Shown here piece after piece: positions 4,854 to 53,540 of a stretch of DNA of 64,000 bases. Under the pieces are notes generated by a model, which had not been told where the DNA came from, did no database searches, and saw only the letters and a program-made list of their open reading frames with translations. Source of the DNA: an uncultured candidatus Brocadiaceae bacterium (GTDB taxonomy: Bacteria > Planctomycetota > Brocadiia > SM23-32). The stretch is taken from the NCBI GenBank assembly GCA_964521715.1, contig CAZFSS010000002.1, positions 151,828-215,827 of the forward strand, read 5' to 3'. A program made the position numbers and the translations under genes. Each line of letters starts with the position of its first letter. Position 1 is the first letter of the stretch.

Positions 4854-5834
4854 TCATCGCCCGAGCGCTGCGACTCGGGCGGCCACGTCGCCAACGGACG
4901 GCCAGGCGCCCCCGGGCGCCCGGACCACCTGTACCCTCGGCCCGCGCGGCGCCCACACGCAGGGATCCGTCGGGCCGAAGACCGCCACGGTCGGCGCGCC
5001 CAGGGCGGCGGCCAGATGGGAGACCCCGCTGTCGTTCCCCACGTAGCAGCCGCAGTGCGTCAGAAGCGCGGCCACCCGGCCCAGGTCCAGGCCGGCTGCC
5101 CTGGCCAGCGGCACGCGCAACGGCAGGCGGTCCGCCACTTCCCGGCAGGCCTGCTCGTCCGCCGGGCCTTCGATCAGCAGGATCGGCCTCTCAAGCAGCT
5201 CAGCCAGGCGGGCGAAACGCTCGGGCGGCCAGCACTTCCGCCGCCCCCCGCTTCCCGGATGGATTGCGACCGGCCTGCGGCCCGCAGCCGGGCTGCGGCC
5301 CGCAGGCAAACGCGATGCAAGCCACCGCCCGGCCCGCTCGCCTTCCTCGCGCGGCACGCGTACGTCGGGGAACGGCAGGGGCTCCGGGGCGGGATCCGCA
5401 ACGGCCCGGGCGAAGTGCACGGCCGCATGACCGGGTCCCGGCGGCCGGACGGGCCACGTCAACACGGGGCCGGGGCAGAGACGCCGCACGTTGCTCACCA
5501 GGGCCTCATCCGTGCCGGAGCTGTAGATCACCACGGCGTGCGCCTGCGCGAAGGCGCCCGTGGGGTCCTCAGCCGCGCCGGCGATGAACAGCGGCGTCAG
5601 CAGCGGGGAGTCGAACCGCACGACGCGGACGGGGAAGGCGAGCAACGGCGCGATCTGCTCCGCCCAGGCGGAACCGACCAGCGTGATCGCCGCACGCGGC
5701 GCTTCCCGCAGCATCACCTGGAGCGCGGGCACTGTCAGCAGCGTATCCCCCAGGCCGCCGGGCCTGACGATGGCAACACGCGCCTCCCCGCGCCGGGGCA
5801 AGCCCGCCGCCACTTCCTGCCGCAGCCGCATGGC
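4854..5834 (-). CDS. Glycosyltransferase family 9 (heptosyltransferase-like)
   Basis: GLGDTLLTVPAL near the N-terminus and GNDSGVSHLAAALGAPTVAVFGPTDP near the C-terminus match GT9 (RfaF/WaaC family). Start assumed at MRLRQ. Confidence 0.7.
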   Translation of the reverse strand, partial: AMRLRQEVAAGLPRRGEARVAIVRPGGLGDTLLTVPALQVMLREAPRAAITLVGSAWAEQIAPLLAFPVRVVRFDSPLLTPLFIAGAAEDPTGAFAQAHAVVIYSSGTDEALVSNVRRLCPGPVLTWPVRPPGPGHAAVHFARAVADPAPEPLPFPDVRVPREEGERAGRWLASRLPAGRSPAAGRRPVAIHPGSGGRRKCWPPERFARLAELLERPILLIEGPADEQACREVADRLPLRVPLARAAGLDLGRVAALLTHCGCYVGNDSGVSHLAAALGAPTVAVFGPTDPCVWAPRGPRVQVVRAPGGAWPSVGDVAARVAALGR

Positions 5835-18945: not shown

Positions 18946-19148
18946 CCCCCCCTGCTCTTGCTCCTACTCCTGCTCGCAGGCAGGTGCTAGGTTTTAGGTG
19001 CTAGGTGCCAGGAACTGCCCCTACTCCTGCTCCCGCTGTTCGTTGTTCGTTCCTCGTTGTTCGTTCCTCGTAGTCACTGTCCACTGTCGTTACCGTTGTT
19101 CGGCGTTAGTCGTTACTGACAACTGGCCACTGACAACCGGCAACTGAC
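18946..19148. repeat. Low-complexity word-based intergenic repeat element (copy R1: CTCCTACTCCTGCTC / GGTGCTAGGTGC / GTTCGTTGTTCGTT / ACTGGCCACTGACAAC words)
   Basis: Read directly in the convergent gap between the STK and ADH genes. Shares long word strings in the same orientation with 20380..20545 and 50095..50180. Confidence 0.7.
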
Positions 19149-25575: not shown

Positions 25576-25670
25576 CGCGCCGTGCCATCCCGAGCGGTCC
25601 GCAGCTCCGCACCTGTCATCCCGAGCGGTCCGCAGCTCCGCACCTGTCATCCCGAGCGGTCCGAAGCTCC
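25576..25670. repeat. 31-bp tandem direct repeat (CATCCCGAGCGGTCCGCAGCTCCGCACCTGT), about 2.7 copies, with internal palindrome CGGTCCGC/GCGGACCG
   Basis: Read directly in the intergenic region upstream (promoter side) of the GH5 gene. Confidence 0.8.
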
Positions 25671-25835
25671 GCGGACCGCGAGGGATCTCGCGCCCGGGAG
25701 GGCGGCGGCTGTCGGACCGGCGAGATTCCTCTTGCGCCATACGGCGCACTCGGAATGACACAGGGTGACCTCGCGCCCTGCCACCCGTGCCTCTCGCTCC
25801 GTGACTCACGTATTCTGCACCGGCGGCAAGGTTTG

Positions 25836-34177: not shown

Positions 34178-34435
34178 GCGCGGCGCGGTTTCTGAGGGCA
34201 GATGTGGGCCGGGGCAGCGCAAGCGAGAGGATCAACCGAAAGACCAGAAGGCGGGGCAGTCGGACGGCCCGGGAGGCCGAGATCGACGAGCTGGCTGCTG
34301 ACCTCTGGGGCCTGTCGAAGGCGGAGCTGAAGGACATCCAGGATTCCTTGGCGGACCTAATGGAATGAGTGGTTGAGGCGTCGGCGGACATGTCGGGTCA
34401 AGTCACACATCACGGGTGGGTCGAAGGGGAATCCA

Positions 34436-36049
34436 ATGCCGGGTACTAGGCCGTTCGGTACGAAAGACATAGGCGGCGAGCTATTGCCGATCCTCACGCG
34501 GGGCATCTACCGTGACCCGCTGGACACGCTTAGGGAGTACGTCCAGAACTCCATAGATGCTGGCGCTCACCATATCCAGGTCGCGATCACCTCTGACCTC
34601 ATCTCGGTGCGCGACGACGGAGCGGGCATGACGCGACAGGTCGCCGAGCGCGCCATCCGCTTGGGCATGTCCGACAAGGACCCTACTCAGGACGTTGGTT
34701 TCAGGGGCATAGGTGTCTACAGCGCTTTTAACGTATGCCAGAAGCTGGAAATCTACACGCGCCCGCGAGCCGGAGAGCCTTCCAAGTTGGTGTTCGACTT
34801 TGCGAGAACCCGCGAGAAGCTTCAGGACGAAGAGCAGCGCAGGCTGAACGGCAAGCCCTCAGGGCTCGACTTGGTGGCCCTATTGGGCGACTCGGTGTGG
34901 GTCGAGGAGTGCAGCGAGTGCCCAATAGCAGCAAGCGGCACAGTGGTGTTACTGGTAGGCATCCGGGGTGACGTGTACGGCCGACTGACAGACCGAGGGG
35001 CGGTCCGTCAGTATCTGGAGTCAGTTGTACCGCTACCGTTCCCGCCGGCGTTTGCCTATAAGCATCAGATAGAGGCCAGGTTCCGACAGGATGATTACCG
35101 GGTGGTGGACATGGAACTCACCATAGACGGACGGAACGAGGCCATTTGCAGGCCGTACCGGGACTCCATGTTCACACACGGCAAAGGGATTGGGCCGAAG
35201 TTCTACCCTCTGAGCCATGTTCTGGCTCGCGGCAAGCTGGGGTTCGCCTGGGTCTGCCTTAACGACGCACGTAGGTACCTGCCCGACCGGGCATTGCGCG
35301 GCCTTCTGGTCAAGAAGTTCGGCTTCTCTGTTGGTGACAGGGATTACTTCGCCCGCTACTTCTCGCGCCAGGTCTTCAACAACCGTGTGACGGGCGAGAT
35401 CATCGTTACCCGTGACGAGCTCGTTCCGAACGCTGCAAGGTCTGAGTTCGAACCTAGCCCCATCCGAGATGCTCTTTACCTCGCCTTCTCCAACCTGGCG
35501 GCCAAGGTTTCGAGGTGGGCCAACCAGGTTCAAGAGGAACTGAAAGCCAGAGAAGAGCTTCAGGAGATCTCTCCTGAGGTCTTCAGAATCGCCGAAGAAG
35601 TTCCTCTGTCGGAACGGGACGTACCTAAGCTATTGTCTCTGAATAACGTACTCTCCTCCTACGAGAGCAGGCTCAGGACTCACCACGCGAAACTGAAGAA
35701 GATGAACCCAGGGCTGCTCAGGCGGACGCTGACGGCGCTTGCTCAGACCCAGGACACCATCGCCGAGGTGCTAAGCGCTCAACAGCTCGGAGGTGAGGCG
35801 CGCAAAGGGCGGGTAAGACGGGCCGGGAGGCTGCTGGTTACCGCACCATCCGAAGAGGAGCTCGCCCACGCGCGGGAGAAACCCCATACCCTGGTCGACA
35901 TCGTTGGCTATCTCGGCATGGACCTCAGCGCTGACGCCACCCTTCTTCTTGAGTACATCGACAGGGAAGTCCTGCAGCGGAAGCTCTCGCCTGTAGAGTA
36001 CGCCGAGTGCATGGCGGATCTCCTTGCGTTCCTGGAGGAGAGCCTGTGA
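34436..36049 (+). CDS. GHKL-superfamily ATPase (Hsp90/MORC-like, HATPase_c_3) with ~400-aa C-terminal region
   Basis: Bergerat-fold motifs are present: N-box LREYVQNSIDAGA, G1 box ISVRDDGAGM, G2 box VGFRGIGVYSAF (compare Hsp90 IGQFGVGFYSAF). An RBS-like GAAGGGGA precedes the ATG at 34436. The stop is 2 nt before the next gene. Confidence 0.7.
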   Translation: MPGTRPFGTKDIGGELLPILTRGIYRDPLDTLREYVQNSIDAGAHHIQVAITSDLISVRDDGAGMTRQVAERAIRLGMSDKDPTQDVGFRGIGVYSAFNVCQKLEIYTRPRAGEPSKLVFDFARTREKLQDEEQRRLNGKPSGLDLVALLGDSVWVEECSECPIAASGTVVLLVGIRGDVYGRLTDRGAVRQYLESVVPLPFPPAFAYKHQIEARFRQDDYRVVDMELTIDGRNEAICRPYRDSMFTHGKGIGPKFYPLSHVLARGKLGFAWVCLNDARRYLPDRALRGLLVKKFGFSVGDRDYFARYFSRQVFNNRVTGEIIVTRDELVPNAARSEFEPSPIRDALYLAFSNLAAKVSRWANQVQEELKAREELQEISPEVFRIAEEVPLSERDVPKLLSLNNVLSSYESRLRTHHAKLKKMNPGLLRRTLTALAQTQDTIAEVLSAQQLGGEARKGRVRRAGRLLVTAPSEEELAHAREKPHTLVDIVGYLGMDLSADATLLLEYIDREVLQRKLSPVEYAECMADLLAFLEESL

Positions 36050-36050
36050 C

Positions 36051-37010
36051 ATGGCGGCGATGTTCGCGGACCATCCACGAAAGAAGGTAGTGCGCGAGGA
36101 CTGGGATACTCCCGTCCTCAACTTCCTGCACGACAGGTGGAACCACGGATACTTCTACTTTGGGCTGCCGGGGCCACAAGCCTTGGACATCAGGCTGTGG
36201 CGCGAGATGATCCGCCGGGTGGTCGCGTTCGAAATCGAGGAAGCGCACTCCAGAGATCCGAGGAGATCGATTGTCGAGCTCAACAGGCAGTTGGCGCTAC
36301 TTGGGGTGCCGTACTCAGTGTACTGCGGTCCTTTGGAGGAAGTCGTGTTGGGCGGCGTAGACTATGATGGTAGGCAGCTCGAGATCAAGGAGTTTGTTAC
36401 GCTGTTCAACCTGGACTTCTGCAATTCCATCACCGGAGCAGTGCGAACGGCTCATGGCAAGAGATACCTGCGTTTCGAGGCCCTCCGAGAGATCGTGAGC
36501 TTCCAACGACGACTCTACCGTGCTGCAGGGGTCTCCCGGTTTGTGATGCTGGTCACGGTACAGGATGCTTTCCACGTCCGACAGCTTAGGAGCTTCGTGT
36601 CAAACCCCGACCTGCCATCGGAGACAGCCGACTACTTAAGTGAGGTCCTAAGGGACAGAGGTCTACCGGACAAGGCCTTCGCATGCGATACCGCTCTACT
36701 GAAGGCCTTCGTCTTCACGTGTCTCAGAGAGTACCTGAGAGGGCAAAACGCCACTTCAGTCTTTCTGCCGCCCGTCGTCTACTATGGTGCTGCCGGACAT
36801 ACTCAGATGATGCACTTCGTCGTCGTGTGCGCCATGGAGAGGGAGGATACCGCCCTGGTTGAGGATCCCCAGGGGGCGGCGGATTTCCTTGGCATGCAGG
36901 TGTTGCGGGCCGACGAGCGGGATATCAAACCAGAGGCGGCTTGCGGCCCAGTGCGCGCTGTGGTCACTGATAGCGTCTCAGTTGTCAGGAACTACCTCTT
37001 CGATGAGTAG
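36051..37010 (+). CDS. Hypothetical protein, possible divergent Rossmann-fold (methyltransferase-like) protein; middle gene of the island operon
   Basis: 320 aa. A beta1-loop-helix-beta2 pattern (YFYFGLPGPQALDIRLWREMIRRVVAFEIEE) and a later LFNLDFCNS resemble SAM-MTase motifs I/II/IV, but weakly. The start is 2 nt after the upstream stop and the end overlaps the next gene by 8 nt. Confidence 0.55.
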   Translation: MAAMFADHPRKKVVREDWDTPVLNFLHDRWNHGYFYFGLPGPQALDIRLWREMIRRVVAFEIEEAHSRDPRRSIVELNRQLALLGVPYSVYCGPLEEVVLGGVDYDGRQLEIKEFVTLFNLDFCNSITGAVRTAHGKRYLRFEALREIVSFQRRLYRAAGVSRFVMLVTVQDAFHVRQLRSFVSNPDLPSETADYLSEVLRDRGLPDKAFACDTALLKAFVFTCLREYLRGQNATSVFLPPVVYYGAAGHTQMMHFVVVCAMEREDTALVEDPQGAADFLGMQVLRADERDIKPEAACGPVRAVVTDSVSVVRNYLFDE

Positions 37011-38535
37011 AACTGCGAAGCACGTCCAGGCAGTAAGGGGCTTCAGCCGCAGTCGACTCGGCGGGCAGCCTCGCCGTCGGACTGCGCTGCTCATCAACCC
37101 GCCCGTCTACGACACGCAATACTGGGCGCAGTGGAGCCAGCCGTACGGCTTGCTGAGAATCGCCGCACTGCTCAGGAAACACCGCTACAAGCGCATCGAG
37201 CTGTTCGACTTCATGGAAACCGATGGACAGCGAAAGGTCTACCAGCACCGGATCAACCGCGAAGAGGAGTACTCTGAGCGAGACCAGCCCTCCCGCCCTA
37301 CTCAGCCGGTGAAGATCGGCAAGAACGGTGAAGAGCTAAGCCTGTACAAGCAGCACTTCGGCAAGACGTGGGCGGAGTTCGACGAGTGGCTCGACGAGAA
37401 GGGCTTCACCGGCAAGCATCCGCCGCACGAAGTCTGGATCTCCGCCATCATGACTTACTGGTGGGAGAGCGTACGAGACCTGACCGTCCGGTTGCGGCGC
37501 CGGTTCGGCAAGCACACCACGATCCTACTCGGTGGTGTTTACCCAACGCTCTGCCCTCAGCACGCGGCCAGGATGACCGAGGCCGACATCGTGGTCGCAG
37601 GCGAGGTGAAGGAGGCGAACGACCTCTGGACGGACCTGTCCCTCTATGAGACCCCGCCTGACTATGCCATCATCACCCCGACGCGCGGCTGCCCCTACAA
37701 CTGCGGCTATTGCGCTCAGAAGGCCCTGAACCGCGGCCGTCGGAAGCCCTGCCGTCGCGACCCAGACGACCTGCTGGCGGAAATGAAGGACAAGCACGAC
37801 CGCTACGGCATCCGCGAGTTCGCGTTCTACGCCGACTACCTCCTCTTCGACTACGAGCACTGCTTGCTGCCACTGCTCCGGCGCATCGTTGAAGAGGGGT
37901 TGCCGTTCAAGCTGCACGCACCAGAGGGCCTGCACGTGCGCACGCTATGCCAGTCCCAGGAGCTCGTCGACCTGCTGAAGGCCTCTGGCTTCGAGAAGGT
38001 CTACCTGCCCTTCGAGCACATCGACCAAGACTACCTAGCTGCCCTGAACCGGGACCATGTGGGGATTGAACACTTCGTGAAGGCAGTGCGTATGATCGAG
38101 AAAGCGGGGTTCCGCATGCGCAACCTGGAGGTCAACGCCTTCGTTCTGTACGGCCTGCCCCAGGAGAAGATCGACGACGTGGTAAGGAGTGTGCTCTTTG
38201 TCTCAGAGGTGGTGGGCTCGATAATCCCCATGCTATTCACCCCCGTGCCGACGACTCAGGTCTACGAGGACTTTCTGCCATTCATCCGGGAGCGAGGATG
38301 GGATCGGGACCTGCACATGCTGAACGGCAAGCTCTATCCGTTCCTCGAGCTGAACGAAGGCTCCGTGAGCGACTACGTTGACCTCCAACGGCTGATGTAT
38401 ATGCTGAACGCGCACTACCGCAGCGCTTCCTTCCGTCCCTTTGGCAACACTCTAGTGGCCCAAAGCTTCCGAAACAACCTAGCGAACGGATTCAGTGAGC
38501 GCGTCGCTCGGATGGCGGCGGGTGCCGACACGTAA
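37003..38535 (+). CDS. B12-binding domain-containing radical SAM protein (class B radical SAM)
   Basis: The N-terminal LLINPPVYDTQY...LLRIAALLRKHRYKRIELFDF matches the cobalamin-binding domain of class B rSAMs. The canonical CX3CX2C cluster motif (TRGCPYNCGYCAQ) follows at about residue 240. 510 aa. ATG overlaps the end of the upstream gene (GATGAGTAG). Confidence 0.75.
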   Translation: MSRTAKHVQAVRGFSRSRLGGQPRRRTALLINPPVYDTQYWAQWSQPYGLLRIAALLRKHRYKRIELFDFMETDGQRKVYQHRINREEEYSERDQPSRPTQPVKIGKNGEELSLYKQHFGKTWAEFDEWLDEKGFTGKHPPHEVWISAIMTYWWESVRDLTVRLRRRFGKHTTILLGGVYPTLCPQHAARMTEADIVVAGEVKEANDLWTDLSLYETPPDYAIITPTRGCPYNCGYCAQKALNRGRRKPCRRDPDDLLAEMKDKHDRYGIREFAFYADYLLFDYEHCLLPLLRRIVEEGLPFKLHAPEGLHVRTLCQSQELVDLLKASGFEKVYLPFEHIDQDYLAALNRDHVGIEHFVKAVRMIEKAGFRMRNLEVNAFVLYGLPQEKIDDVVRSVLFVSEVVGSIIPMLFTPVPTTQVYEDFLPFIRERGWDRDLHMLNGKLYPFLELNEGSVSDYVDLQRLMYMLNAHYRSASFRPFGNTLVAQSFRNNLANGFSERVARMAAGADT

Positions 38536-38567
38536 CAGCAAAACCCGAACCTAGCCGGAGGGTCGCC

Positions 38568-39221
38568 ATGTTCGCAAGAGTCTGGTTGTCTGCCGTTCTG
38601 GCCCTTTTGCTCGTGCTCGGCGGCGCCGCGCCCGCGGCCCCTCAGCCGGGCCAGCCTCTGCCCCTGCTCGCCCCGCAGACCGAAGGCGGTAAGCCTCTGA
38701 TGCAGGCGCTCAAGGCGCGCCAGTCGTCGCGCTCCTACAGCAGCGAGCCGCTGCCGGCGCAGGTGCTGTCCAACCTTCTCTGGGCCGCCTGCGGCGTGAA
38801 CCGCCCCGAATCCGGAAAGCGCACCGCGCCCACCGCCGTCAACTGGCAGGAGATAGACGTCTACGTCGCCACGGCCGACGGGCTCTACCTGTTCGACGCG
38901 CACGCCCACGCGCTCAACCCAGTGCTGAGCGAGGACATCCGCGCGCTGACCGGCACCCAGCCCTTCGTAGCGCAGGCGCCTGTCAACCTGGTCTACGTGG
39001 CGGACTTCGCGCGCATGGGCCGGGCGTCCCAGGCGGACAGGGATTTCTACTCCGCCACGGACACGGGCTTCATCAGCCAGAACGTCTACCTTTACTGCGC
39101 TTCCGAGGGACTGGCAACCGTGGTCCGGGGCCTGGTTGACCGCCCCGCCCTGGCCAAGCGCATGGGCCTGCGGCCCGACCAGAAGATCATCCTCGCGCAA
39201 TCGGTCGGCTACCCGCAGTAG
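38568..39221 (+). CDS. Nitroreductase family protein with N-terminal signal peptide
   Basis: A signal peptide is followed by nitroreductase-fold motifs (KARQSSRSY...LSNLLWAACGVNRPESGKRTAPTA...). 217 aa. Confidence 0.65.
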   Translation: MFARVWLSAVLALLLVLGGAAPAAPQPGQPLPLLAPQTEGGKPLMQALKARQSSRSYSSEPLPAQVLSNLLWAACGVNRPESGKRTAPTAVNWQEIDVYVATADGLYLFDAHAHALNPVLSEDIRALTGTQPFVAQAPVNLVYVADFARMGRASQADRDFYSATDTGFISQNVYLYCASEGLATVVRGLVDRPALAKRMGLRPDQKIILAQSVGYPQ

Positions 39222-39297
39222 CGCGGGCGCTAGGCCGGGGAACACAGCGAGGAGCCCGAGCAGCACAGGATACTTCAGCCCCGAGGGGATGCTACTG

Positions 39298-40209
39298 ATG
39301 GAGAAGACGGTGCTTTCGTTTTTCTGCGACGACACCAGTCCGTACGGGCGGCCGGCGGACGCGTTCAAGACCTTCCTGGACTTCATCTCGGCCGAGGGCG
39401 CCGGGGGGGAATCCACCGTCCTCCTGGCGCCGGGCTCCGGCGAACGCACGCTGAGCCAGCCCACGACCGATCTCGAACGCCGGTACGTCCAGCAGGTCCG
39501 GCGCGCGTTCGACTGCGGGATCGACACGCACATGGAGGTCATGACGCACGGCGGGGTCTATGACTTCGAGCGCGGCTGCGTGCCCGAAGGCGTCATCCAC
39601 GAGGGGCTCTGGCTCCACGAGCCGGACGTCTCGGTCGCCACTTACGAATCCTACCTGGGGCACATCATCGAGGAGGGCGAGAGGGCCGGCATCCGGTTCA
39701 CCGGCTTCACCTGGCCCGGCTGCGGATGCGAGGCGTGCACGAAGCGATACGCCGAGCTGCGCGAGCGGGGCATCACCGACCTGAACCCGAACGTCTGGCA
39801 GGCGTTGCTGAACCTGGCCAGGCGCGGCAAGTTCCGCGGGCCCACCGTGCCGTGCTTCGTCCACGGAAGGGAGCAGGTGCGCCTGATGGCGGCCGACGGC
39901 AAGTATGCCGTCTACGACATGCCCGTCTACGCGGACGACTGGTTCGGCATCTGGGAGAATGACCCGGCGCGCGTGAACGCCGACTACTACATCGCTGCGG
40001 ACGGCCGGTCCGGCCGCTTCGTCGAGATCGTGAAGTCCGGCGCGCCCTACTGCTTCTACTACTGCCACTGGCAGGGCGCCAACCCGGCCGACGGCGTCGG
40101 GTGGAAGGCGTTCCAGGAGGTGATCCGGCGCGTCAACCGCCACCTGAGCGACCGCGTCGAGTGGATGCGGCCGAGCGAGTTCACGGACCGCTGGCATCAG
40201 CAGCACTGA
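39298..40209 (+). CDS. DUF2334-like (polysaccharide deacetylase-like) hypothetical protein
   Basis: The N-terminal LSFFCDDTSPYG resembles the hDDvsP motif of DUF2334. 304 aa. The last ~60 nt are duplicated at 41147..41208. Confidence 0.45.
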   Translation: MEKTVLSFFCDDTSPYGRPADAFKTFLDFISAEGAGGESTVLLAPGSGERTLSQPTTDLERRYVQQVRRAFDCGIDTHMEVMTHGGVYDFERGCVPEGVIHEGLWLHEPDVSVATYESYLGHIIEEGERAGIRFTGFTWPGCGCEACTKRYAELRERGITDLNPNVWQALLNLARRGKFRGPTVPCFVHGREQVRLMAADGKYAVYDMPVYADDWFGIWENDPARVNADYYIAADGRSGRFVEIVKSGAPYCFYYCHWQGANPADGVGWKAFQEVIRRVNRHLSDRVEWMRPSEFTDRWHQQH

Positions 40210-40295
40210 GAGCCTCTGACAGGACCCCGCGCCTGTGGCGTCGGCACGGCCCAGGCGCACAAGCTTCGAGCCGGGCGTACCTCGCGCCAGCGGCG

Positions 40296-40324
40296 TTGAT
40301 TCGGACGCACGCGGCCTCCATAAT
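40296..40324 (+). promoter_or_regulatory. Sigma70-like promoter candidate for the MNT/HEPN cassette (-35 TTGATT, 17-bp spacer, -10 CATAAT)
   Basis: TTGATTcggacgcacgcggcctcCATAAT is read directly, about 70 nt upstream of the AGGAGG RBS and GTG start of the nucleotidyltransferase gene. Confidence 0.35.
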
Positions 40325-40395
40325 GGTCATTGATCGGCGGCCCGGGCGTGCACCCCACAGGACCCGATCCGCCCGGACAATCAGGAGGAAGATCG

Positions 40396-40677
40396 GTGGA
40401 CACCAAGCTGAGAGAGCGCATTGGGCGTGCCGCTCTGGTCCTGAAAGCTGCGGGGGCGAGCGAGGTGTACGTCTTCGGCTCGGCTGCGTCGGGCGAACTG
40501 CGCGAAAGCTCCGACATCGACCTTGCCGTGTCGGGTCTGCCTCCCGAGAAGTTCTTTGTGGCGATGGCCCAGGCGGGGGACGCTCTGGGCCGTGGGCTCG
40601 ATCTCGTCGACCTGGACGAGGAGTGCCCTTTCACCCGCTACCTGAAGGAAGAGGGAGAGCTGCAGCGCGTGGAGTAG
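40396..40677 (+). CDS. Nucleotidyltransferase domain protein (minimal NTase, MNT-type antitoxin-like)
   Basis: The GSAASGELRESSDIDLAV motif is the GS...DxD NTase signature. AGGAGG RBS then GTG at 40396. The track ORF starts earlier, at 40330. Confidence 0.7.
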   Translation: MDTKLRERIGRAALVLKAAGASEVYVFGSAASGELRESSDIDLAVSGLPPEKFFVAMAQAGDALGRGLDLVDLDEECPFTRYLKEEGELQRVE

Positions 40678-40720
40678 GCTTCGGAAGCAGGCGGCGGTTG
40701 AGTGTGAGCAGATCCAGGAG

Positions 40721-41131
40721 TTGCTCGACGTCCATCGTCCCGTGCTGCAGAAGTGCGCCGCTGCTGAACCGGACCCCATCGAGCTCTCCGCGCTCGGCGC
40801 GATGTTGCATGCGTTCTACACTGGCGTCGAGAACATCCTGAAGCGTATCACGGTCGAGCTGGGCGAAGACCTGCCGCGCGGCGAGGCATGGCACCGGCAA
40901 CTGCTGAACGCCATGGCGCGTGCTGGGCGTAGCCGTCCGGCTCTCATTTCCGAATCGCTGCGGGACGCGTTACGTCCCTACCTCGAGTTCCGCCACGTGT
41001 TCCGGCAGGCGTACACATTCCAGCTCAAATGGCCGCGGATGGCCAGGCTCGTCGTCGAGTCCGAGGCCATCTTCAAGCAGTTCGAGAAGGAGCTCGACGC
41101 TTTCCTGGAGGCCGACAAAGGGGCGGGGTAG
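40721..41131 (+). CDS. HEPN-domain protein (HI0074 / NTase substrate-binding-like; toxin-like partner of the MNT)
   Basis: 136-aa helical protein with an R-x6-H HEPN-like motif (RPYLEFRH) and the usual adjacency to a minimal nucleotidyltransferase. Confidence 0.6.
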   Translation: MLDVHRPVLQKCAAAEPDPIELSALGAMLHAFYTGVENILKRITVELGEDLPRGEAWHRQLLNAMARAGRSRPALISESLRDALRPYLEFRHVFRQAYTFQLKWPRMARLVVESEAIFKQFEKELDAFLEADKGAG

Positions 41132-41146
41132 TTGGAGTTACCTCCG

Positions 41147-41208
41147 GCGACCGCGTCGAGTGGATGCGGCCGAGCGCGTTCACGGACCGCTGGCACCAGC
41201 ACCACTGA
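41147..41208. repeat. ~60-bp direct duplication of the 3' end of the DUF2334-like gene (copy 2; copy 1 at 40149..40209), bracketing the MNT/HEPN cassette
   Basis: CGACCGCGTCGAGTGGATGCGGCCGAGCG[A/C]GTTCACGGACCGCTGGCA[T/C]CAGCA[G/C]CACTGAG is about 95% identical between the two positions. Confidence 0.8.
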
Positions 41209-41234
41209 GGGCCGCCCAAGAGAAAGGACAGGCG

Positions 41235-44009
41235 ATGCAGCACCAGGAGCAGCATCCGCAAATGGCACGCATCCAGAAGCCGAAGCGGGAAGGCACGGGC
41301 GGCGCCGCCGTCGCCCTTGCAGCGATCGTTCTGGTCGCCGCGTTTCAGGCGGCTTCACCGGCAGAAGGGACGGACATGAAGAACCTGGTTTCCAACGGTG
41401 ACTTCTCGGAGATCTGGCTCGGCAGCCCCGCAGGATGGGAAACTTCGGGAAACGAGCAGAACGTGGACCAGCGCCTGGAGGCCGTCCTGGAAGGCGGCAA
41501 CCGTTACGCGAAGCTAACCTGCACGCGCTGCGAGGGAAGCGGCGGCTCGGACCACGCGATGATCGCGCAGATTGGCGGCGCCGCGCTCGAAGAGGGCAAG
41601 TCCTATGAGTTCTCCTGCCGGGCGCGCGCCGAGGGCCTCAAAGGGCGGACCGTCAACGTGGCCATGCGCGACACGGACGGCTGGCACGAGTGCGGGCTGA
41701 GCGCCGACCTCGTCCTGCGCGCCTCCTGGAAGGAGTTCCGCAACGTGTTCCAGGCAACGCGCTCGGTGGGGCCGACGGGGCGGCTCCAGTTCTGGTACAC
41801 CGAGCCGGGCACGTTCTACCTGGACGACGTCAGCATCGTCGAGGTCGCCGTCGGCGATGTCGAGTTCACCGACGTCGTCCCGCCAACAGGCGGCAAGAAC
41901 CTGGTGCCGAACGGCTCCTTCGAGGTCGGGGCGGGCGGATGGTCATCGTTCGGCAATCCGGCTGGCTGGGGCAATATGTGCCGCTTGCACGGGACGATCG
42001 AGCCGTCAGGCGGCGCCGACGGCCGGGCGTTCCTGCGCGTGCCGATGGGCGAAGGCCGGGCGCCCACCTTCTACTTCGACTACTTCGCGCCCGTTGCCAG
42101 GCGGCCAACGATGGCGCTGGCCGCGAACCTGGGATGGATCCCCGTCGAGGCCGGCCAGCCCTACACGCTCTCCTGCGACATGCGGGCCGACGTCGACGGC
42201 GTCGCGGCCACCATCGGCGCGTTCGCCAAGGCGCCGGAGGGCCGTTCGTGGGAGAACTCGCACCACCACGCGCAGAAGGTCAGGCTCTCGACCTCATGGC
42301 AGCGCTGCTCCCTCACGTTCCGCCCCGCCTACCGCTACGTCTTCGTCACCGTCGGGCCGGACCTGGATGAGGATGCGCGCGTGGACGTGGACATCGACGC
42401 CGTCCAACTGGAGAGGGGCGAGCGGGCGACGCCCTTCGAGCCGCGCAGCCCGGTGGAGGTGGCCGTCGAGCCCTCCGCGCCCGGTGGCATCTTCGCGGTC
42501 GGCGAGCCGGCCGCGCTCCACCTGCGGGCGTGCAATCACAGCGACGGCGCTGAGGCCGTGCGCTTCTCCTTCCAGGTCGCCGACTTCTTCGGCCGGCCCG
42601 TCGCGCTGCCGGGGGCCGCGCTGGAGGTCGCCCCGCGCGGGATCGCGGAGGGGCAGGTGCAGCTCCCCGGGGACTGGCGGGGCTACTACCGTGTCCGCGC
42701 CAGCTACGACTCCGGGAGCGGCAGCAGCTCCCAGGACGTGCGCCTCGCCTTCGTCCCGCCGCAGACGCGTGACGATTCGGTCATCGGCATCAATCACGCG
42801 TTCAACGACGCCTACCTGATCCAGCTCGCGCGCAAGGCCGGCATCACGTGGTACCGCGACTGGTCGCTCAAATGGCAGCACCTGGAGCCCGAGCCCGGCC
42901 GGCTCGACTGGCAGGTCGGCGACGTGCAGATAGACCGGGTGCTCAGAGAGGGCGTGCACCTGATGGCGCTGCTGCCGCCGTTCCCGTCCGCGAACTGGTC
43001 ATCGACCGCCGACCCGGACATGCAGGCGTCCTCGTGGGAGGCCGGCCGCCAGGCGTGGGCGCCGAAGGAGCCGCAGAAGCTCGCCGAGTTCGTCGGAAAG
43101 GCCGTCTCGCGTTACAAGAACCGAGTCAAGGTCTGGGAGTTCCTGAACGAGCCGATCTTCACCTCTTACGCCCTGCCGCGCGCGGGCGGCTACGAGCCGG
43201 CCGACTACGTCCGGCTGCTGGCCCCGGTTTCGGCGGCAATGCGGCAGGCCGATCCCGACTGCAAAGTCATGGGCGGCATCGCCGGCGGGACGGGCACCTA
43301 CACGCGCGAGGTCATCGGCGCCGGGTGCCTGGACTACGTGGACATCTTCAACCTGCACATCTACCCCGGGGCCGCCGCGCCCGAATCGTTCCTGGACGGC
43401 ATGGACGCGCTTCTGGCCCTGATGGACGAGCACGGCGGGCGCAAGCCGATCTGGATGACCGAGTTCTCCTACTACGCCGAGGACGACCTGCCGCGCCGGC
43501 CCTTCATCCCGGCCCCGGACTCCTGGTCGGAATCGCGCCTGCTGGCCGACGAGCGCGAATGCGCCGAGATGACGATCCGGTTCTGCGTCATCATGATGTC
43601 GCGCGGGGTGGAGAAGGTCTTCATCCACTCCGGCTCGAGCGGCACTGTGAACATGCCGAACACGGAATGCTGCGTCTTCAAGTACGGCGGCGCGCCGGCG
43701 AAGGTGCTTCCGGCCATCGCAGTGTTCACGGACTTGATGGGACCGTCGCCGAAGTGCGTCGGCCAGGCGCGGCTCGGCGAGGACGCGTACATCTTCGGGT
43801 TCGAGACGGGGGAGCGCAGTGTGCTGGTGTGCTGGAGCGCGTTCGACGAGGCGGAGGTCGCGCTGCCCGAGGGCGCGCGGTGCCTCGACTTCATGGGCAA
43901 CGAGCTGCCGGCGCGCCGCGTCCCCCTCACCCCGACGCCCATCTACCTGATCGGCCCGCCCGGCGCGGGCGAACAGCTCGGCCGGTCACTGGGCAAGGTT
44001 GGCTCTTGA
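41235..44009 (+). CDS. Secreted glycoside hydrolase (clan GH-A) with two N-terminal carbohydrate-binding-module-like domains
   Basis: RBS AGAAAGGA then ATG at 41235, with a signal peptide. Two CBM4/9-like beta-sandwich segments (NLVSNGDFSE...; NLVPNGSFEVGAGGW...) are present. The catalytic core carries acid/base VWEFLNEP and nucleophile PIWMTEFS. Confidence 0.7.
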   Translation: MQHQEQHPQMARIQKPKREGTGGAAVALAAIVLVAAFQAASPAEGTDMKNLVSNGDFSEIWLGSPAGWETSGNEQNVDQRLEAVLEGGNRYAKLTCTRCEGSGGSDHAMIAQIGGAALEEGKSYEFSCRARAEGLKGRTVNVAMRDTDGWHECGLSADLVLRASWKEFRNVFQATRSVGPTGRLQFWYTEPGTFYLDDVSIVEVAVGDVEFTDVVPPTGGKNLVPNGSFEVGAGGWSSFGNPAGWGNMCRLHGTIEPSGGADGRAFLRVPMGEGRAPTFYFDYFAPVARRPTMALAANLGWIPVEAGQPYTLSCDMRADVDGVAATIGAFAKAPEGRSWENSHHHAQKVRLSTSWQRCSLTFRPAYRYVFVTVGPDLDEDARVDVDIDAVQLERGERATPFEPRSPVEVAVEPSAPGGIFAVGEPAALHLRACNHSDGAEAVRFSFQVADFFGRPVALPGAALEVAPRGIAEGQVQLPGDWRGYYRVRASYDSGSGSSSQDVRLAFVPPQTRDDSVIGINHAFNDAYLIQLARKAGITWYRDWSLKWQHLEPEPGRLDWQVGDVQIDRVLREGVHLMALLPPFPSANWSSTADPDMQASSWEAGRQAWAPKEPQKLAEFVGKAVSRYKNRVKVWEFLNEPIFTSYALPRAGGYEPADYVRLLAPVSAAMRQADPDCKVMGGIAGGTGTYTREVIGAGCLDYVDIFNLHIYPGAAAPESFLDGMDALLALMDEHGGRKPIWMTEFSYYAEDDLPRRPFIPAPDSWSESRLLADERECAEMTIRFCVIMMSRGVEKVFIHSGSSGTVNMPNTECCVFKYGGAPAKVLPAIAVFTDLMGPSPKCVGQARLGEDAYIFGFETGERSVLVCWSAFDEAEVALPEGARCLDFMGNELPARRVPLTPTPIYLIGPPGAGEQLGRSLGKVGS

Positions 44010-44040
44010 CCACGCTGAAGCGATCCAGCTAAAAGCCCTT

Positions 44041-44964
44041 TCACTTCTCGCCCCCCCGGTCCGTCTCGACATGTCCATCATCACCATCCTGACGGCGCGC
44101 CCGCCGCACCGCCTCAATGAGCAGGTTGATGAGATCTTCGCGAGCCCGCATATAGCCTGACTGGCCAACGGCGGCCTCCTTCAGCATGTCGCTGGCGCTG
44201 GGTCTCTCGCGCTTGCGTTCGGCAAGATAAAGGAGGACAACCAGATAGATCACATAAGCCGTCAGAAGCATACAGACAATGCCCCATACAGCTGGGTTCC
44301 GCACGGGGCTCGACCCCCTGCTGACGCAACCTGCCAGATCGCCCAATGAGCACTGCTTCGGACTGGGGCCCTCATCTTGGCTGACAACGATGTTATCAGT
44401 TACTGTGGGAGCGACTAAAGGCACTTGCTGGCCAAGCTCAAATCGAAAGATCGCCAGAAGGAAAGCTCCGGGCGCTAGGCGCTGACCTTCGTCGCGTGCT
44501 CTCACTATCAGGAAGCTAGGACGAGTTGCGTTGCCTCCGTTCCAAGCTTCCAGCTTGCGACGGCAATCGCCGTCGAGTTCACCCCACACGCCAGGATATA
44601 CCTGGACGAACGTCCTTGTTGCGCCGCTTGGAAGCGGAACTGTGGCGCTGACTTTGCGCGCAGTTCCGCTTCCTACGTTGACGACCAATAGCGACAACTG
44701 AACCGAGGCCACAGCCGTGCTATCGGCCTCAACCACGGAGTTCCACGTCGCACACCACCGGACATCAGGGCCTGCGAGTAAGCGTGCCACAGCAGGCCAG
44801 ACGAAGGGAATCACAATCAAGATGACAGCGGCGAGCCCGCGGAGGATGTGCTTTAAGCTGCGCGTGATCCAGGCCCCTAGCCAGCAGTTGACCCCTCCGG
44901 TCCAGCCGGATCCGAGACCGCAGGATACTCCCCCTCCCGCACCGCAGGCGCGAACGCACTCCAA
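44041..44964 (-). CDS. Hypothetical 2-TM membrane protein in a low-GC cassette
   Basis: N-terminal TM (LAAVILIVIPFVWPAV) and C-terminal TM (VWGIVCMLLTAYVIYLVVLLYL). Lower GC than the surroundings. The 5' end overlaps the upstream ORF by 88 nt, so the true start is uncertain. Confidence 0.35.
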   Translation of the reverse strand: MECVRACGAGGGVSCGLGSGWTGGVNCWLGAWITRSLKHILRGLAAVILIVIPFVWPAVARLLAGPDVRWCATWNSVVEADSTAVASVQLSLLVVNVGSGTARKVSATVPLPSGATRTFVQVYPGVWGELDGDCRRKLEAWNGGNATRPSFLIVRARDEGQRLAPGAFLLAIFRFELGQQVPLVAPTVTDNIVVSQDEGPSPKQCSLGDLAGCVSRGSSPVRNPAVWGIVCMLLTAYVIYLVVLLYLAERKRERPSASDMLKEAAVGQSGYMRAREDLINLLIEAVRRARRQDGDDGHVETDRGGEK

Positions 44965-47047: not shown

Positions 47048-48032
47048 GGGAGTCTCTCTCGAGGTCGCAGGCCCAGCCGTGGTCGAGGCGGTCGACGGGT
47101 TCGCCGTACGGCGAATAGATCATCTCGAACCGGCGACGAGCTTCGAGGATCACGCGGGGGCGCTGCGGGCCTCCTCCGCGCCAACTCCCGGAGCTATGGA
47201 GGCCGAGCCCTCCTCCGGTCCGACTCCAGGAGCTATGGAGGCCAGAACCTCCTCCGCTCCAAACGCCGGAGCTACGGAGCCCAAGCCCACCACCCGACGG
47301 CCAGGAGCGGCGGATGCGGTCCTGGCGACTGCGAAGAAGCATGCGGAGCGCGCGGCGGTGCTGAACCTCTTCCGACATCCCGGCCAAACCCGCGAAGTTC
47401 TGGAGCCGGCCCGGGCAGCCGGCCCGCATCCAGGCGCGCGCGGCCTGGCGCTCGACCAGGCGCCGGTCGGGCTTGACGCCCTTCATGTGAAAGAGCAGCG
47501 GCCCATCGCTTCGGCCGGGGCTCACGCTGCCGAGGTCCTTGAGGGCGGCCGCGCTGCCGCCTGCCCAGCGGCCGCCAGGCAGCAGCCGGCGGTTCCAGAA
47601 GACGTGGCAGCGGTCGTAGTGGCGCAAGCGCTGGGTCGAGTGATCGAAGTCGCCCCACATCTCGCAGAGCTGGAGGTGAACGAGGGGCCGTTGCCCCGCC
47701 GTACGGCGGGCGGCCAGTTCGCGGATGATCCCCGCGTTGTATTCGGCGAGCACGTCGTCGGAGTCGAGCCAGAAGAGCAGGTCCGAGTCGGTCGCAGCCA
47801 GCAGGCGGTTGCGGGCCTCGATCCAGCCGAGCTGGCGCTCTCCCTCGTGCCGCAGCAGGCGGATGTGCGGATGCTGGCGCGCGACTTCGAGCACCACGTC
47901 GGGCGTCAGGTCGTCCGAGCAGTCATCGAGCACGACGATCTCGTCGAAATAGGGCGCGATGCTGTTCAGAGAGAACCACAGCGCGTAGTCGTCGTTGTGG
48001 GCGGGGATGAGGGCTGTGAGGCGGTCCTTCAT
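47040..48032 (-). CDS. Glycosyltransferase family 2 protein with Gly/Ser-rich tandem-repeat C-terminal region
   Basis: LTALIPAHNDDYAL...VVLDDCSDD (GT2). The C-terminus SWPSGGGLGLRSSGVWSGGGSGLHSSWSRTGGGLGLHSSGSW is encoded by a ~45-bp imperfect tandem repeat at 47170..47295. Confidence 0.7.
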   Translation of the reverse strand: MKDRLTALIPAHNDDYALWFSLNSIAPYFDEIVVLDDCSDDLTPDVVLEVARQHPHIRLLRHEGERQLGWIEARNRLLAATDSDLLFWLDSDDVLAEYNAGIIRELAARRTAGQRPLVHLQLCEMWGDFDHSTQRLRHYDRCHVFWNRRLLPGGRWAGGSAAALKDLGSVSPGRSDGPLLFHMKGVKPDRRLVERQAARAWMRAGCPGRLQNFAGLAGMSEEVQHRRALRMLLRSRQDRIRRSWPSGGGLGLRSSGVWSGGGSGLHSSWSRTGGGLGLHSSGSWRGGGPQRPRVILEARRRFEMIYSPYGEPVDRLDHGWACDLERDSHA

Positions 48033-50094: not shown

Positions 50095-50180
50095 CCCCAG
50101 GTGCTGGGTAAGAGGTGCTGGGTGACAGGTTCTAGGTGCTAGACGTTCGTTGTTCGTTGTTCGTTGGTCGTTGTTCGTCA
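50095..50180. repeat. Word-based intergenic repeat element (copy R3: GGTGCTAGGTGCTAG / GTTCGTTGTTCGTT / CACTGTCCACTGGCC)
   Basis: Shares the same words and orientation as R1 (18946..19148). Confidence 0.65.
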
Positions 50181-53399: not shown

Positions 53400-53540
53400 C
53401 CTTCACCACGGAGGCACGGAGGCCACCGAGAACGGCGGAATCGGGGGGCACGACCACGCCAACAGACCCGGAGGCTTTGTTGCCGGTACCAGAGCCCTTG
53501 TCTTTCTCCGTGTTCTCCGTGTCTCCGTGGTGGACTTGCT
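53400..53540. repeat. Second copy of the CACGGAG-word hairpin element
   Basis: CACCACGGAGGCACGGAGGCCACCGAGAACGG ... CTTGTCTTTCTCCGTGTTCTCCGTGTCTCCGTGGTGGAC. Confidence 0.65.

Follow-up and report, generated by a model that had tools for sequence, protein, structure and literature searches.

Restriction-modification gene complexes reportedly undergo insertion with long target duplication, as Nobusato et al. are said to have described in 2000 in Gene 259:99. Homology-facilitated illegitimate recombination was likewise reportedly described in 2002 by de Vries and Wackernagel and by Prudhomme et al. For the type VII HepT/MntA toxin–antitoxin systems, we take the reference structures to be PDB 5yep and 7bxo (Shewanella SO_3166/3165) and 7ae6-7ae9 (Aphanizomenon HEPN/MNT).

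Long target duplications around restriction-modification systems are documented by Furuta, Abe & Kobayashi (2010; PMC2853133) and also in PMC3874152, and they have been tentatively attributed to double-strand breaks made by those systems (PMC2853133). Insertion sequences of the IS1634/IS1630 type in Mycoplasma, which generate long variable target duplications, are cited in the same article (PMC2853133). Homology-facilitated illegitimate recombination and displaced orphan 3' regions are treated in PMC5361080, which also discusses the “C-terminal displacement” of Rhs, CDI and T6SS effector-immunity arrays. In the literature on toxin–antitoxin pairs with long direct repeats or target duplications, we found no specific report.

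Here, we analyzed a stretch of 64,000 nucleotides (64 kb; hereafter, the window), in which a foreign toxin–antitoxin cassette has very probably been inserted with duplication of the end of a host gene, designated gene X.

Structure of the Locus

The host genes, the repeat copies and the insert are arranged as follows.

39298..40209, + strand: gene X, encoding a conserved hypothetical protein of 303 aa whose predicted fold is deacetylase-like (CE4-type); the final 60 nt of the gene lie in the left repeat copy
40148..40214, + strand: left repeat copy, which covers the final 19 gene X codons, their stop and 5 nt beyond it
40215..41146, + strand: insert, a toxin–antitoxin cassette with its own promoter, 932 bp
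41147..41213, + strand: right repeat copy, which is a gene X 3' end, displaced or duplicated, whose frame and stop are intact
41235..44009, + strand: downstream host gene, encoding a secreted protein of 924 aa, carbohydrate-binding and glycosidase-like (Pfam CBM_4_9 at 4e-15; Glyco_hydro_cc match weak)

The segment at 40148-40214 recurs as a direct repeat at 41147-41213 with a spacing of 999. The initial annotation was right that a repeat exists, but its length is 67 nt rather than ~60 nt, and its identity is 94% (63/67) rather than ~95%. A 28-mer and a 31-mer derived from the repeat each occurred exactly twice in the window, the repeat k-mers had no match in shuffled versions of it, and no other dispersed high-identity repeat of such size was present within the 64 kb. 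The repeat was also absent from the 103 unrelated loci searched. Across the window and these loci, the search for further copies, of the kind proposed in the initial annotation, returned just the two copies within the window. The left copy encodes DRVEWMRPSEFTDRWH, a peptide that forms the conserved C-terminus in a protein family of wide distribution; the left copy is therefore not a generic repeat, and its assignment specifically to the 3' end of the upstream gene was confirmed. The right copy differs from the left by E->A, one silent change at H, Q->H and one base past the stop codon. Beyond it, the sequence continues into an apparently original 21-nt spacer and then into the downstream gene. 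Four independent Logan assemblies (L001, L002, L102 and L103) were 100% identical to the window at this locus, and three of the four spanned both repeat copies, so an assembly artefact is ruled out.

These data place the entry point of the cassette 60 nt 5' of the gene X stop codon. Gene X is still intact because its last 67 bases flank the 932-bp insert on both sides. The gene had been described as DUF2334-like, and this was not borne out: searches of Pfam and NCBIfam, DUF2334 included, gave no match. At E ≤ 1e-20 it has 528 homologs, of which the nearest non-self one is 67% identical. In the AlphaFold model of the protein (pLDDT 93.6), the top Foldseek PDB matches were the polysaccharide/peptidoglycan deacetylases 3qbu and 3rxz (E ~5e-6, TM ~0.5), so that the predicted structure resembles polysaccharide and peptidoglycan deacetylases at the level of the fold only. 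No compositional break, which would mark a chimeric end, was found near the 3' end of gene X. The start of the downstream gene was called identically in independent assemblies, and this gene presumably once lay directly 3' of gene X.

The Toxin–Antitoxin Cassette

Within the insert and at its right junction, the following features were identified.

40296..40324, + strand: sigma-70-like promoter, TTGATT-17 nt-CATAAT
40383..40388, + strand: ribosome-binding site AGGAGG, 7 nt 5' of the MNT GTG start (40396), conserved in L014
40396..40677, + strand: MNT antitoxin (MntA-like minimal nucleotidyltransferase), 93 aa
40667..40669, + strand: lost HepT start, GCG where relatives have GTG, ATG or TTG
40670..41131, + strand: HepT-like HEPN toxin frame, 153 codons after the lost start; PF20797 HepT-like_2 at 1.6e-31
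41132..41146, + strand: spacer at the right junction, 15 nt from the toxin stop to the right repeat copy

The limits of the cassette were delineated by its nearest relative, L014, which is 82.5% identical at the nucleotide level from ~14 nt past the left repeat to exactly the toxin stop. The L014/L015 similarity (82.5% nt) spans 40228 to 41120, and the toxin stop codon occupies 41129-41131. Beyond the toxin stop and outside the cassette limits, the flanks of L014 are unrelated to the window. The cassette also differs from its surroundings in composition, with a GC3 of 0.80-0.82 vs 0.89-0.94 in the neighbouring genes. When the sequence 3' of the toxin gene in L014 was aligned with the right repeat, the score was 15 vs 10.2 ± 1.6 in shuffles, and 8 of 500 shuffles scored at least as high; as an indication that the repeat travels with the cassette, this likeness is too weak to claim. 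A small hairpin (-9.6 kcal/mol, z = -2.05) lies across the right junction.

The promoter is the single sigma-70-like site in 40000-41400 (1 found vs 0.1 expected). L014 and L016 both retain its TTGATTC and the GCATAATG -10 block, and L017 shares the latter element. Thus, the promoter, the AGGAGG ribosome-binding site and the two gene products named in the initial annotation, a minimal nucleotidyltransferase (Polbeta/NTP_transf_2 matches) and a HEPN protein (HepT-like_2 match), were all recovered. The MNT protein matched Pfam Polbeta at 1.2e-9 and NTP_transf_2 at 2.9e-7, and its PDB match was the minimal nucleotidyltransferase 1wot. In its translation, the GS-x10-DxD motif reads GSAASGELRESSDID.

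The locus shares with the type VII HepT/MntA systems the gene order, in which the MNT gene is followed by an overlapping HEPN gene, as well as the GS-x10-DxD motif in MNT. Its toxin model (AlphaFold, pLDDT 88.6) superposes on HepT, the best PDB matches being the HepT/HEPN toxins 7bxo, 7ae6 and 5yep (TM up to 0.73/0.85). However, the window toxin falls in the Pfam HepT-like_2 branch, for which sequence comparison gave no relative of solved structure, and the MNT protein matched NCBIfam MntA_antitoxin at 1e-10 with 41 bits, under the model cutoff of 60. In the motif region of the toxin (F-R-H-V-F-R-Q-A-Y), R-x4-[H/Q]-x-Y stands at the position of the catalytic/AMPylation motif. The R-H dyad and the Tyr are invariant among relatives, whereas the position of the His in the canonical R-x4-6-H catalytic motif is occupied by Gln in the window and in 81 of 120 relatives, and by His in 30 of them. 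An addiction or defence module is the role that the cassette would have in relatives, with MNT neutralising the HepT RNase and loss of the pair being penalised.

A further difference from HepT/MntA concerns the start codon of the toxin. Homologous toxins begin with M/V-W-x-[KR]-L-R-K-Q, whereas the window has A-W-S-R-L-R-K-Q. Among the 60 loci in which the W codon could be located, GTG, ATG or TTG precedes it in 57, and GCG was found only in the window and in L062; L014 has GTG. The two genes overlap by ~11 nt in relatives, and the GTG -> GCG change leaves the overlapping MNT protein unaltered. Canonical in-frame starts next occur at 40721 (TTG), 40742 (GTG) and 40802 (ATG), and a toxin starting at one of them would be shorter at the N terminus by 17 to 44 residues, among them helix 1 and the invariant E11. 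Gene callers gave versions of 109 and 129 aa, vs 154 aa in homologs. Because the ancestral GTG start is now GCG, which would abolish translation from this codon, the full-length toxin is probably no longer made and the toxin is probably disabled. The insertion in this genome is well delimited, recently foreign and probably decaying.

Flanking Repeats in the Cassette Family

We compared the flanks of 76 testable relatives of the cassette with shifted pseudo-cassettes as controls, at a threshold of E<1e-7. Flanking direct repeats were detected in 18 of the 76 relatives and at none of the 76 shifted control positions (Fisher p = 2.4e-6). Counted per site group, 10 of 53 had repeats vs 0 of 76 controls, which corresponds to ~10 independent sites. 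L083/L085, which have two tandem paralogous cassettes and were initially counted as repeat-bearing, were left out. The repeats vary in length (27-136 nt) and differ per site, each corresponding to the 3' end or 5' end of the local neighbouring gene or to a terminator. Among repeats from 11 sites there was no common core, save a terminator hairpin shared by L053 and L075. The inserts at the other repeat-bearing sites are mostly cassette-sized (831-1318 nt; 1706 nt in L035), and at six sites the distance from the toxin stop codon to the right junction ranges from -4 to +27 nt. In L038-40, the 53-nt repeats are 98-100% identical and stop within the target ORF, whose reading frame at the left copy therefore runs on into the insert. 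The right copy in L035 is decayed and contains an in-frame stop.

No terminal inverted repeats were found at the ends of the window insert, and in the family only 2 of 76 loci had weak matches, both of them terminator hairpins. The family has no conserved insert ends; the ends vary. No recombinase was detected in the insert genes or in the ORFs tested nearby (29.6-38.5 and 44-53.6 kb), and there is no tRNA in the 64-kb window. Viral contigs contained no relatives of the cassette, and on plasmids there were only remote ones (≤38% identity). A DNA transposon or MITE was rejected, as the insert ends have no inverted repeats and the duplication, at 27 to 83 nt, is neither short nor fixed in length. 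These results show that the cassette family has a recurrent signature, in which the end of an adjacent gene is duplicated over a long stretch that differs between loci, with no recombinase in the insert or the ORFs tested, no inverted termini and no common core.

Origin of the Repeats

Judged from sequence comparison, the most likely route to the repeats appears to be displacement of the resident gene end. An incoming DNA fragment would carry the cassette together with the adjoining end of a gene homologous to the resident one. It would recombine by homology on the gene-end side and join illegitimately on the other side, in the process called homology-facilitated illegitimate recombination or “C-terminal displacement.” The resident gene end would be shoved downstream and survive as the right copy. 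Overlapping junctions would give a duplication and non-overlapping junctions a deletion, and recombination between the two repeats could remove the cassette again, leaving gene X intact. Displacement requires a donor in which the cassette already abuts the same gene, and it therefore leaves the first insertion unexplained.

Two related locus groups suggest one-sided homologous recombination of this kind. In the cysS group, a displaced cysS 3' end follows the cassette in L052, L069 and L090, and six syntenic relatives have the cassette but no displaced cysS end. The displaced copies of these three lineages keep the frame and stop, and their changes fall mainly at the third codon position (4/2/9 for the three positions, p = 0.03). 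Between L052 and L069, the flanks are 88-93% identical, whereas the cysS 3' end plus the cassette are just 72% identical. In the second group, L061 has the repeat, and L076, with the same flanks, has no repeat and is missing 1.2 kb that L061 retains.

It is possible, but in our judgment rather unlikely, that the repeats arose as a true de novo duplication of a long target site, with the two copies identical at birth and the right one having drifted since. Nicks on opposite strands ~67 bp apart, or breaks at differing positions on sister chromosomes, would then have been closed by fill-in, and a linear cassette fragment would have been joined by end-joining or by an unknown trans-acting enzyme. 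The variable, target-derived repeat lengths, the near-identical 53-nt repeats ending in the target ORF of L038-40, the in-frame stop in the right copy of L035 and the mostly non-synonymous differences at the window all agree with such an origin, and the like signature around restriction-modification systems has been read in this way (PMC2853133). However, the displaced cysS copies of three lineages keep frame and stop and differ mostly synonymously, closely related cysS-group genomes bear divergent cassettes at the same site, and syntenic relatives have a cassette without a repeat. In addition, there was no enzyme candidate in the insert or among the ORFs tested around it. When differences were pooled across sites, the third-position excess (18/32) rejected pure drift (p = 0.006) but not a model with one copy constrained and one drifting (p = 0.14). 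The window copies have three coding differences only (one synonymous, two not), in which a donor-derived copy and drift are indistinguishable. The decayed copy in L035 and the near-identical repeats in L038-40 fit a de novo duplication equally well.

The initial annotation had proposed a target duplication left by a mobile cassette. Its core stands, namely a discrete, horizontally moving MNT/HEPN unit with its own promoter and a duplicated gene 3' end. The staggered, transposase-type cut that the term implies is to be taken with reserve, as no inverted repeats, conserved ends or shared core were found, and the related loci point to displacement.

A search for empty sites was made at the window and at L038-40, which looks like the youngest insertion. 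Exact searches with gene X and with the downstream gene recovered nothing but the same strain, so the window yielded no empty site. P0007, P0004 and P0012, the gene X homologs nearest in sequence (≤67% identity), lie in unrelated contexts, and a genome scan gave homologs of at most 58% identity. L003, considered as a carrier of both gene X and the cassette, does not carry both. As the nearest homolog is 67% identical and non-syntenic and no empty site was found, the insertion at the window is deduced indirectly, and its mechanism from the related loci. For L038-40, an empty site was likewise not found: identical matches to the flanking protein occurred only in cassette-bearing contigs or in contigs that break at the repeat, and the 78% relative was not syntenic.

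Integrative elements commonly target gene 3' ends and bring a replacement end with them, and toxin–antitoxin pairs are the genes most resistant to deletion. On this basis, a larger island or prophage with an integrase could originally have entered at the 3' end of gene X, with the repeats as its attL/attR, and internal deletions could have reduced it to the toxin–antitoxin pair, like a cis-mobilisable remnant; a site-specific integrative class is also described in PMC2853133. We consider this improbable, as the unit conserved with L014 fills the space between the repeats except for ~14 nt at its left end and 15 nt at its right end, with no remnants of element ends, and inserts at the other repeat-bearing sites are mostly cassette-sized too. 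Moreover, the repeats share no core, neither an integrase (among the ORFs tested within ~10 kb) nor a tRNA was found in the window, and homologs were absent from viral contigs and only remote on plasmids.

Tandem duplications are frequent in bacteria, and tandem paralogous cassettes are known at L083/L085, so a local duplication of the gene X end could have preceded the landing of an unrelated cassette, or the arrangement could be a coincidence. Both are very unlikely: the same geometry recurs at ~10 independent sites vs 0 of 76 control positions, a recurrence that makes later landing in an unrelated tandem duplication unlikely, and the limits of the cassette coincide with those of the repeats.

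MNT/HEPN pairs are common integron cargo and the repeat length falls inside the attC range, but the integron/attC scar suggested in the initial annotation was rejected as having almost no chance of being correct, because the repeat is conserved protein-coding sequence without an attC-like single-strand fold (z from -1.3 to +0.5 vs shuffles), a conserved promoter lies within the cassette itself, the 64 kb contain no array of additional repeat copies and the ORFs tested (29.6-38.5 and 44-53.6 kb) included no integrase.

Discussion

Taken as a whole, our account, in which a horizontally acquired MNT-HepT (type VII-like) cassette bears a recurrent family signature produced by the proposed displacement mechanism, is one that we hold to be evenly poised between right and wrong. 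Its closest known parallel is the “insertion with long target duplication” of restriction-modification systems. These are likewise small addictive units without a mobility gene, and the direct target repeats on their two sides are long (tens to hundreds of bp), variable and specific to the locus; the repeats frequently extend over the 3' end of an adjacent gene, and the two copies fall slightly short of identity. In the terms used by Furuta et al. (2010), the window insert is <20 kb (932 bp), has no mobility gene and is bounded by direct repeats >30 bp (67 nt). The cargo differs, being an RNase-type toxin–antitoxin pair that does not cleave DNA, so a drive through double-strand breaks made by a restriction enzyme cannot apply here. 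The published restriction-modification cases also rest on comparison with empty sites, whereas none was found for the window.

C-terminal displacement in Rhs, CDI and T6SS systems has the homology anchor in a conserved adjacent gene, the illegitimate far join and the orphan resident end downstream that we propose for the cassette, and there too relatives with and without the displaced piece coexist. In those systems, however, what is displaced is a working toxin tip or immunity gene and arrays accumulate, whereas in the MNT-HepT family it is 27-83 nt from the end of a housekeeping or enzyme gene, without evident function, and the process is deduced from sequence. The IS1634/IS1630 elements make the same long, variable direct target repeats as the cassette family, but they encode a transposase and have inverted termini, neither of which is present in the cassette.

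The result at the window is modest on its own. Toxin–antitoxin pairs are among the most widely transferred prokaryotic genes, and how free-standing chromosomal pairs enter is poorly understood. As a speculation to which we give little credence, the cassette family, and perhaps small addiction modules generally, may be a recombinase-less mobile unit with a dedicated mode of entry that makes long variable target duplications, perhaps cycling by excision through recombination between the repeats and re-integration as a one-repeat circle. Such a cycle would equal the “virus-like life cycle” that Kobayashi's group proposed for restriction-modification systems and, if true, would be independent of DNA cleavage by the cargo. 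The occurrence of the same signature at ~10 independent sites of an RNase-type cassette, and at no control position, argues for a general route, which would begin with recombination anchored in a conserved gene next door; selection would then favour junctions that spare both the host gene and the selfish pair.

Gene-End Duplication Around a Toxin–Antitoxin Cassette

The duplication of a host gene's 3′ end reported in the initial annotation was borne out as a 67-nt direct repeat (40148–40214 and 41147–41213; spacing 999), in which 63 of 67 bases are identical. The left copy is the 3′ end of ORF 39298–40209 (hereafter gene X) and encodes DRVEWMRPSEFTDRWHQQH followed by the stop codon; the WMRPS[EAQD][YF]TD block of this peptide is conserved in hundreds of homologs. 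The right copy retains the frame and the stop codon (…PSAFTDRWHQHH, stop); 21 nt of spacer separate it from the ATG that opens the gene for a CBM_4_9 protein of 924 aa. The three coding differences between the copies are uninformative on the origin of the duplication. When the 60-mer was searched for elsewhere, repeat-derived probes gave exactly two matches in the window and zero in shuffled windows, and among 107 fetched loci the probe was present in four, all of them same-strain contigs. Four independent Logan assemblies matched this part of the window at 100% identity, with both copies spanned in three; therefore, the repeat structure is real and is not an assembly artefact.

The 67-nt pair is the sole dispersed high-identity repeat of such size within the 64 kb. 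The window also contains tandem repeats at 25583–25675 and 47170–47286 (31-nt × 3 and 39-nt × 3), GTTCGTT-type short tandem repeats 31 kb apart (19024–19085 and 50131–50178), and a 41-nt repeat with 83% identity spaced by 1.7 kb (51791–51831 and 53480–53520).

The promoter, ribosome-binding site, and MNT (antitoxin) and HEPN (toxin) genes described between the copies were all found, as follows.

Features between the repeat copies
40215–41146: insert, 932 bp between the repeat copies
40296–40324: promoter TTGATT-17-CATAAT, the single such site in the region
40383–40388: AGGAGG ribosome-binding site
40396–40677: MNT gene, 93 aa, with Polbeta and NTP_transf_2 matches and a GS-x10-DxD motif
End at 41131: HepT-like_2 reading frame (PF20797, 1.6e-31)

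Sequence search alone found no solved relative of the toxin. Its AlphaFold model (pLDDT 88.6) is an all-helical bundle whose best PDB matches are HepT/HEPN toxins of type VII toxin–antitoxin systems (7bxo, 7ae6-9, 5yep; TM up to 0.73/0.85). The active-site segment in the window is FRHVFRQAY (∼40994–41020). Among 120 HepT-like_2 members (P0121–P0240), 81 have Gln and 30 have His where R-x4-H places its canonical catalytic His, and the adjoining R-H dyad and a Tyr are invariant. The characterised HepT toxins may have a different active-site arrangement from this family.

Loss of the Toxin Start Codon

Relatives of the toxin are 154 aa long, with the N-terminus M/V-W-x-[KR]-LRKQ and a start codon that overlaps the end of the MNT gene. 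At this position (40667–40669), the window has GCG versus GTG in the closest relative, locus L014; in the overlapping MNT gene, the encoded residue is unaffected (CGT to CGC). The W codon that comes after the start was identifiable in 60 of 80 related loci, and GTG, ATG, or TTG precedes it in 57 of these; the other 20 begin with V/M-S/L-D-K-L, most reading as a GTG start. Apart from the window, GCG occupies the start position in one of the 80 loci (L062, near 2966–2971). Beyond this position, the first canonical starts in frame are TTG at 40721, GTG at 40742, and ATG at 40802, and initiation at any of these would drop helix 1 and the invariant E11. Gene callers gave the toxin gene 109 or 129 aa, in keeping with the loss of the canonical start. 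Judging from the sequence, the toxin is probably disabled in the window, and we infer that it is not produced; GTG-to-GCG may be a recurrent route by which the toxin is silenced and the antitoxin kept.

The Cassette as a Foreign Unit

The closest cassette, in L014/L015, has 82.5% nucleotide identity over an alignment that begins at window position 40228 and stops at the toxin stop codon. Outside this span, which comes within ∼14 nt of the left repeat and 15 nt of the right one, the sequences are unrelated. Less similar cassettes (L016 and L017; 70–72% identical) lie in other gene contexts and have the promoter −10 block in common. The GC3 of the cassette is 0.80–0.82 versus 0.89–0.94 in three neighbouring genes. 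These limits and this composition mark the cassette out as a discrete unit of foreign origin. No relatives were found on viral contigs, and those on plasmids were remote ones only. In L014, the stretch that follows the toxin gene (950–990) weakly resembles window 41141–41180 in the right repeat copy (local score 15 versus 10.2 ± 1.6 in shuffles, reached by 8 of 500). A genuine likeness would mean that the repeat moves together with the cassette, but its significance is too low to rely on.

Gene X had no match in Pfam or NCBIfam, and its model (pLDDT 93.6) has a fold-level likeness to CE4-type deacetylases, so that its earlier “DUF2334-like” label holds only loosely. No recombinase was found among the window ORFs tested within ∼10 kb, and no tRNA in the window. 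The nitroreductase gene, gene X, the cassette, and a glycosidase-like gene form a block (38500–44050) of ∼0.68 GC and GC3 0.89–0.94, with flanks (36–38.4 kb and 44.1–46 kb) of 0.57–0.60 GC. No repeats were seen flanking this 5.5-kb block, which might as a whole be an acquired island. The lower-GC stretch just upstream (34373–38535) encodes a 558-aa HATPase_c_3 protein with weak PADLOC matches to TmtA and MzaB, an overlapping 328-aa ORF without a family, and a B12-binding radical SAM protein, which could form a defence-type cluster.

Flanking Repeats Across the Cassette Family

We fetched 80 loci (53 site groups) with toxin relatives at 52–72% amino-acid identity, of which 76 were testable, and in each looked for sequence shared by two 700-nt flanks, one to the left of the MNT gene and the other to the right of the toxin gene. 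Same-strand flanking repeats were present in 18 of the 76 (27–136 nt; 88–100% identity; E 1e-7 to 1e-57), and the remaining loci gave chance 9–15-mers and two weak 22-nt matches (E ∼1e-3). When pseudo-cassettes shifted by 2.3 or 3.2 kb in the same loci served as the control, 0 of 76 had repeats (Fisher p = 2.4e-6). Excluding L083/L085, a tandem paralogous cassette pair, the signature occurs at ∼10 independent sites plus the window. The flanking duplication is thus a trait of the cassette family. These family-wide repeats, together with the cassette limits set by comparison with L014 and the lower GC3 of the cassette, support the main reading of the initial annotation, a mobile toxin–antitoxin cassette inserted with gene-end duplication.

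The repeated sequence differs at every site.

Sequence forming the repeat
Upstream gene 3′ end: window; cysS in L052/L069; L035; 42-aa ORF in L038-40
Ribosome-binding site, ATG, and first 30–70 nt of the downstream gene: L061, L059, L070
Early coding segment of the downstream gene: L045
Terminator-like hairpin region: L053/L048, L075

Across sites, the repeats have no common core, and neither terminal inverted repeats nor conserved insert ends were found. Insert lengths are mostly 831–1318 nt (1706 nt in L035), and at six sites the distance of the right junction from the toxin stop codon is −4 to +27 nt. The L061 junction is within that codon, the toxin TGA overlapping the ATG of the downstream host gene (4456–4459). 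In the related L076 (∼4450), the MNT gene starts ∼15 nt past the upstream gene's stop codon, too close for a separate promoter to fit.

The two cassettes of L083/L085 are 75% identical overall, but identity reaches 94% in a 136-nt stretch that includes the promoter and MNT start (3616–3751 versus 4876–5011). This pattern resembles local gene conversion, or a joint formed when the paralogous cassettes recombined. The cassettes of L038-40 and L104 lie between a SLFN/AlbA_2-HATPase_c_4 gene and a WYL/BrxR-like regulator. Their repeat stops five codons short of the 42-aa ORF's stop, giving the new tail RLGI instead of KIII. The L105 and L106 assemblies break (contig starts) at the L038-type repeat, and these breaks could hide an empty allele.

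Origin of the Duplication

At nine syntenic loci, cysS is followed by the cassette. In L052, L069, and L090, a second cysS 3′ end and a ∼230-nt spacer come after the cassette; the other six loci are without the second copy, and the downstream gene follows ∼25 nt after the toxin gene. All three displaced copies retain the frame and stop codon, and most of the differences among them fall on third codon positions (at minimum 4/2/9 changes by codon position, p = 0.03), as if each had been coding until recently. Between L052 and L069, the flanks are 88–93% identical versus only 72% for the cysS 3′ end plus cassette, and in L090 the cysS tail adjoining the cassette is highly divergent. There, cysS (87–1706) continues into a long, aberrant C-terminal extension ahead of the cassette, and an intact cysS-type 3′ end (…LEDTPDGTTWRIK, stop) lies after the toxin gene (2530–2601). 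In another pair with the same flanks (81% identical), L061 has the repeat, and L076 lacks both the repeat and 1.2 kb kept in L061.

These two patterns fit one-sided homologous entry with gene-end displacement, the probable route. Homology would hold one side of an incoming fragment carrying the cassette and the end of a neighbouring gene, and the opposite side would be attached by an illegitimate junction; overlapping junctions would leave the resident gene end as a displaced copy, and non-overlapping junctions would delete resident DNA. Such a route matches homology-facilitated illegitimate recombination and also the “C-terminal displacement” proposed at Rhs and T6SS loci (PMC5361080).

A long target duplication arising de novo is a serious rival, because the evidence is not uniform: the 53-nt repeats of L038-40 are 98–100% identical (L038 3352–3404 versus 4486–4538; also L039, L040, and L104), the displaced copy in L035 has decayed, the window differences do not discriminate, and the excess of third-position changes pooled over sites (18/32) is incompatible with pure drift (p = 0.006), though compatible with one copy under constraint and the other drifting (p = 0.14). 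As no empty site was found for the window locus, we infer both the insertion and its mechanism there. The integron/attC-type scar offered as an alternative in the initial annotation was rejected: the repeat is coding sequence without an attC-like fold (z −1.3 to +0.5), the cassette has its own promoter, and neither an integrase among the ORFs tested nor a cassette array was found.

Relation to Known Systems

The closest description of this signature is the “insertion with long target duplication” of restriction–modification systems. These units are addictive, small, and free of mobility genes; the repeats around them are long, vary in length, derive from the target, and in many cases overlap the 3′ end of a neighbouring gene, and the authors suggested the involvement of DNA breakage by the restriction enzyme (PMC2853133; PMC3874152). 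In contrast, the cargo here is an RNase-type toxin–antitoxin pair, and the same signature at such a pair argues against a requirement for that breakage. Within the limited literature searched, we found no report of this signature for toxin–antitoxin cassettes. The window locus itself is an ordinary, probably decaying toxin–antitoxin insertion; the interest lies in the recurrence of the signature across the cassette family, where it parallels an unexplained mode of restriction–modification mobility.
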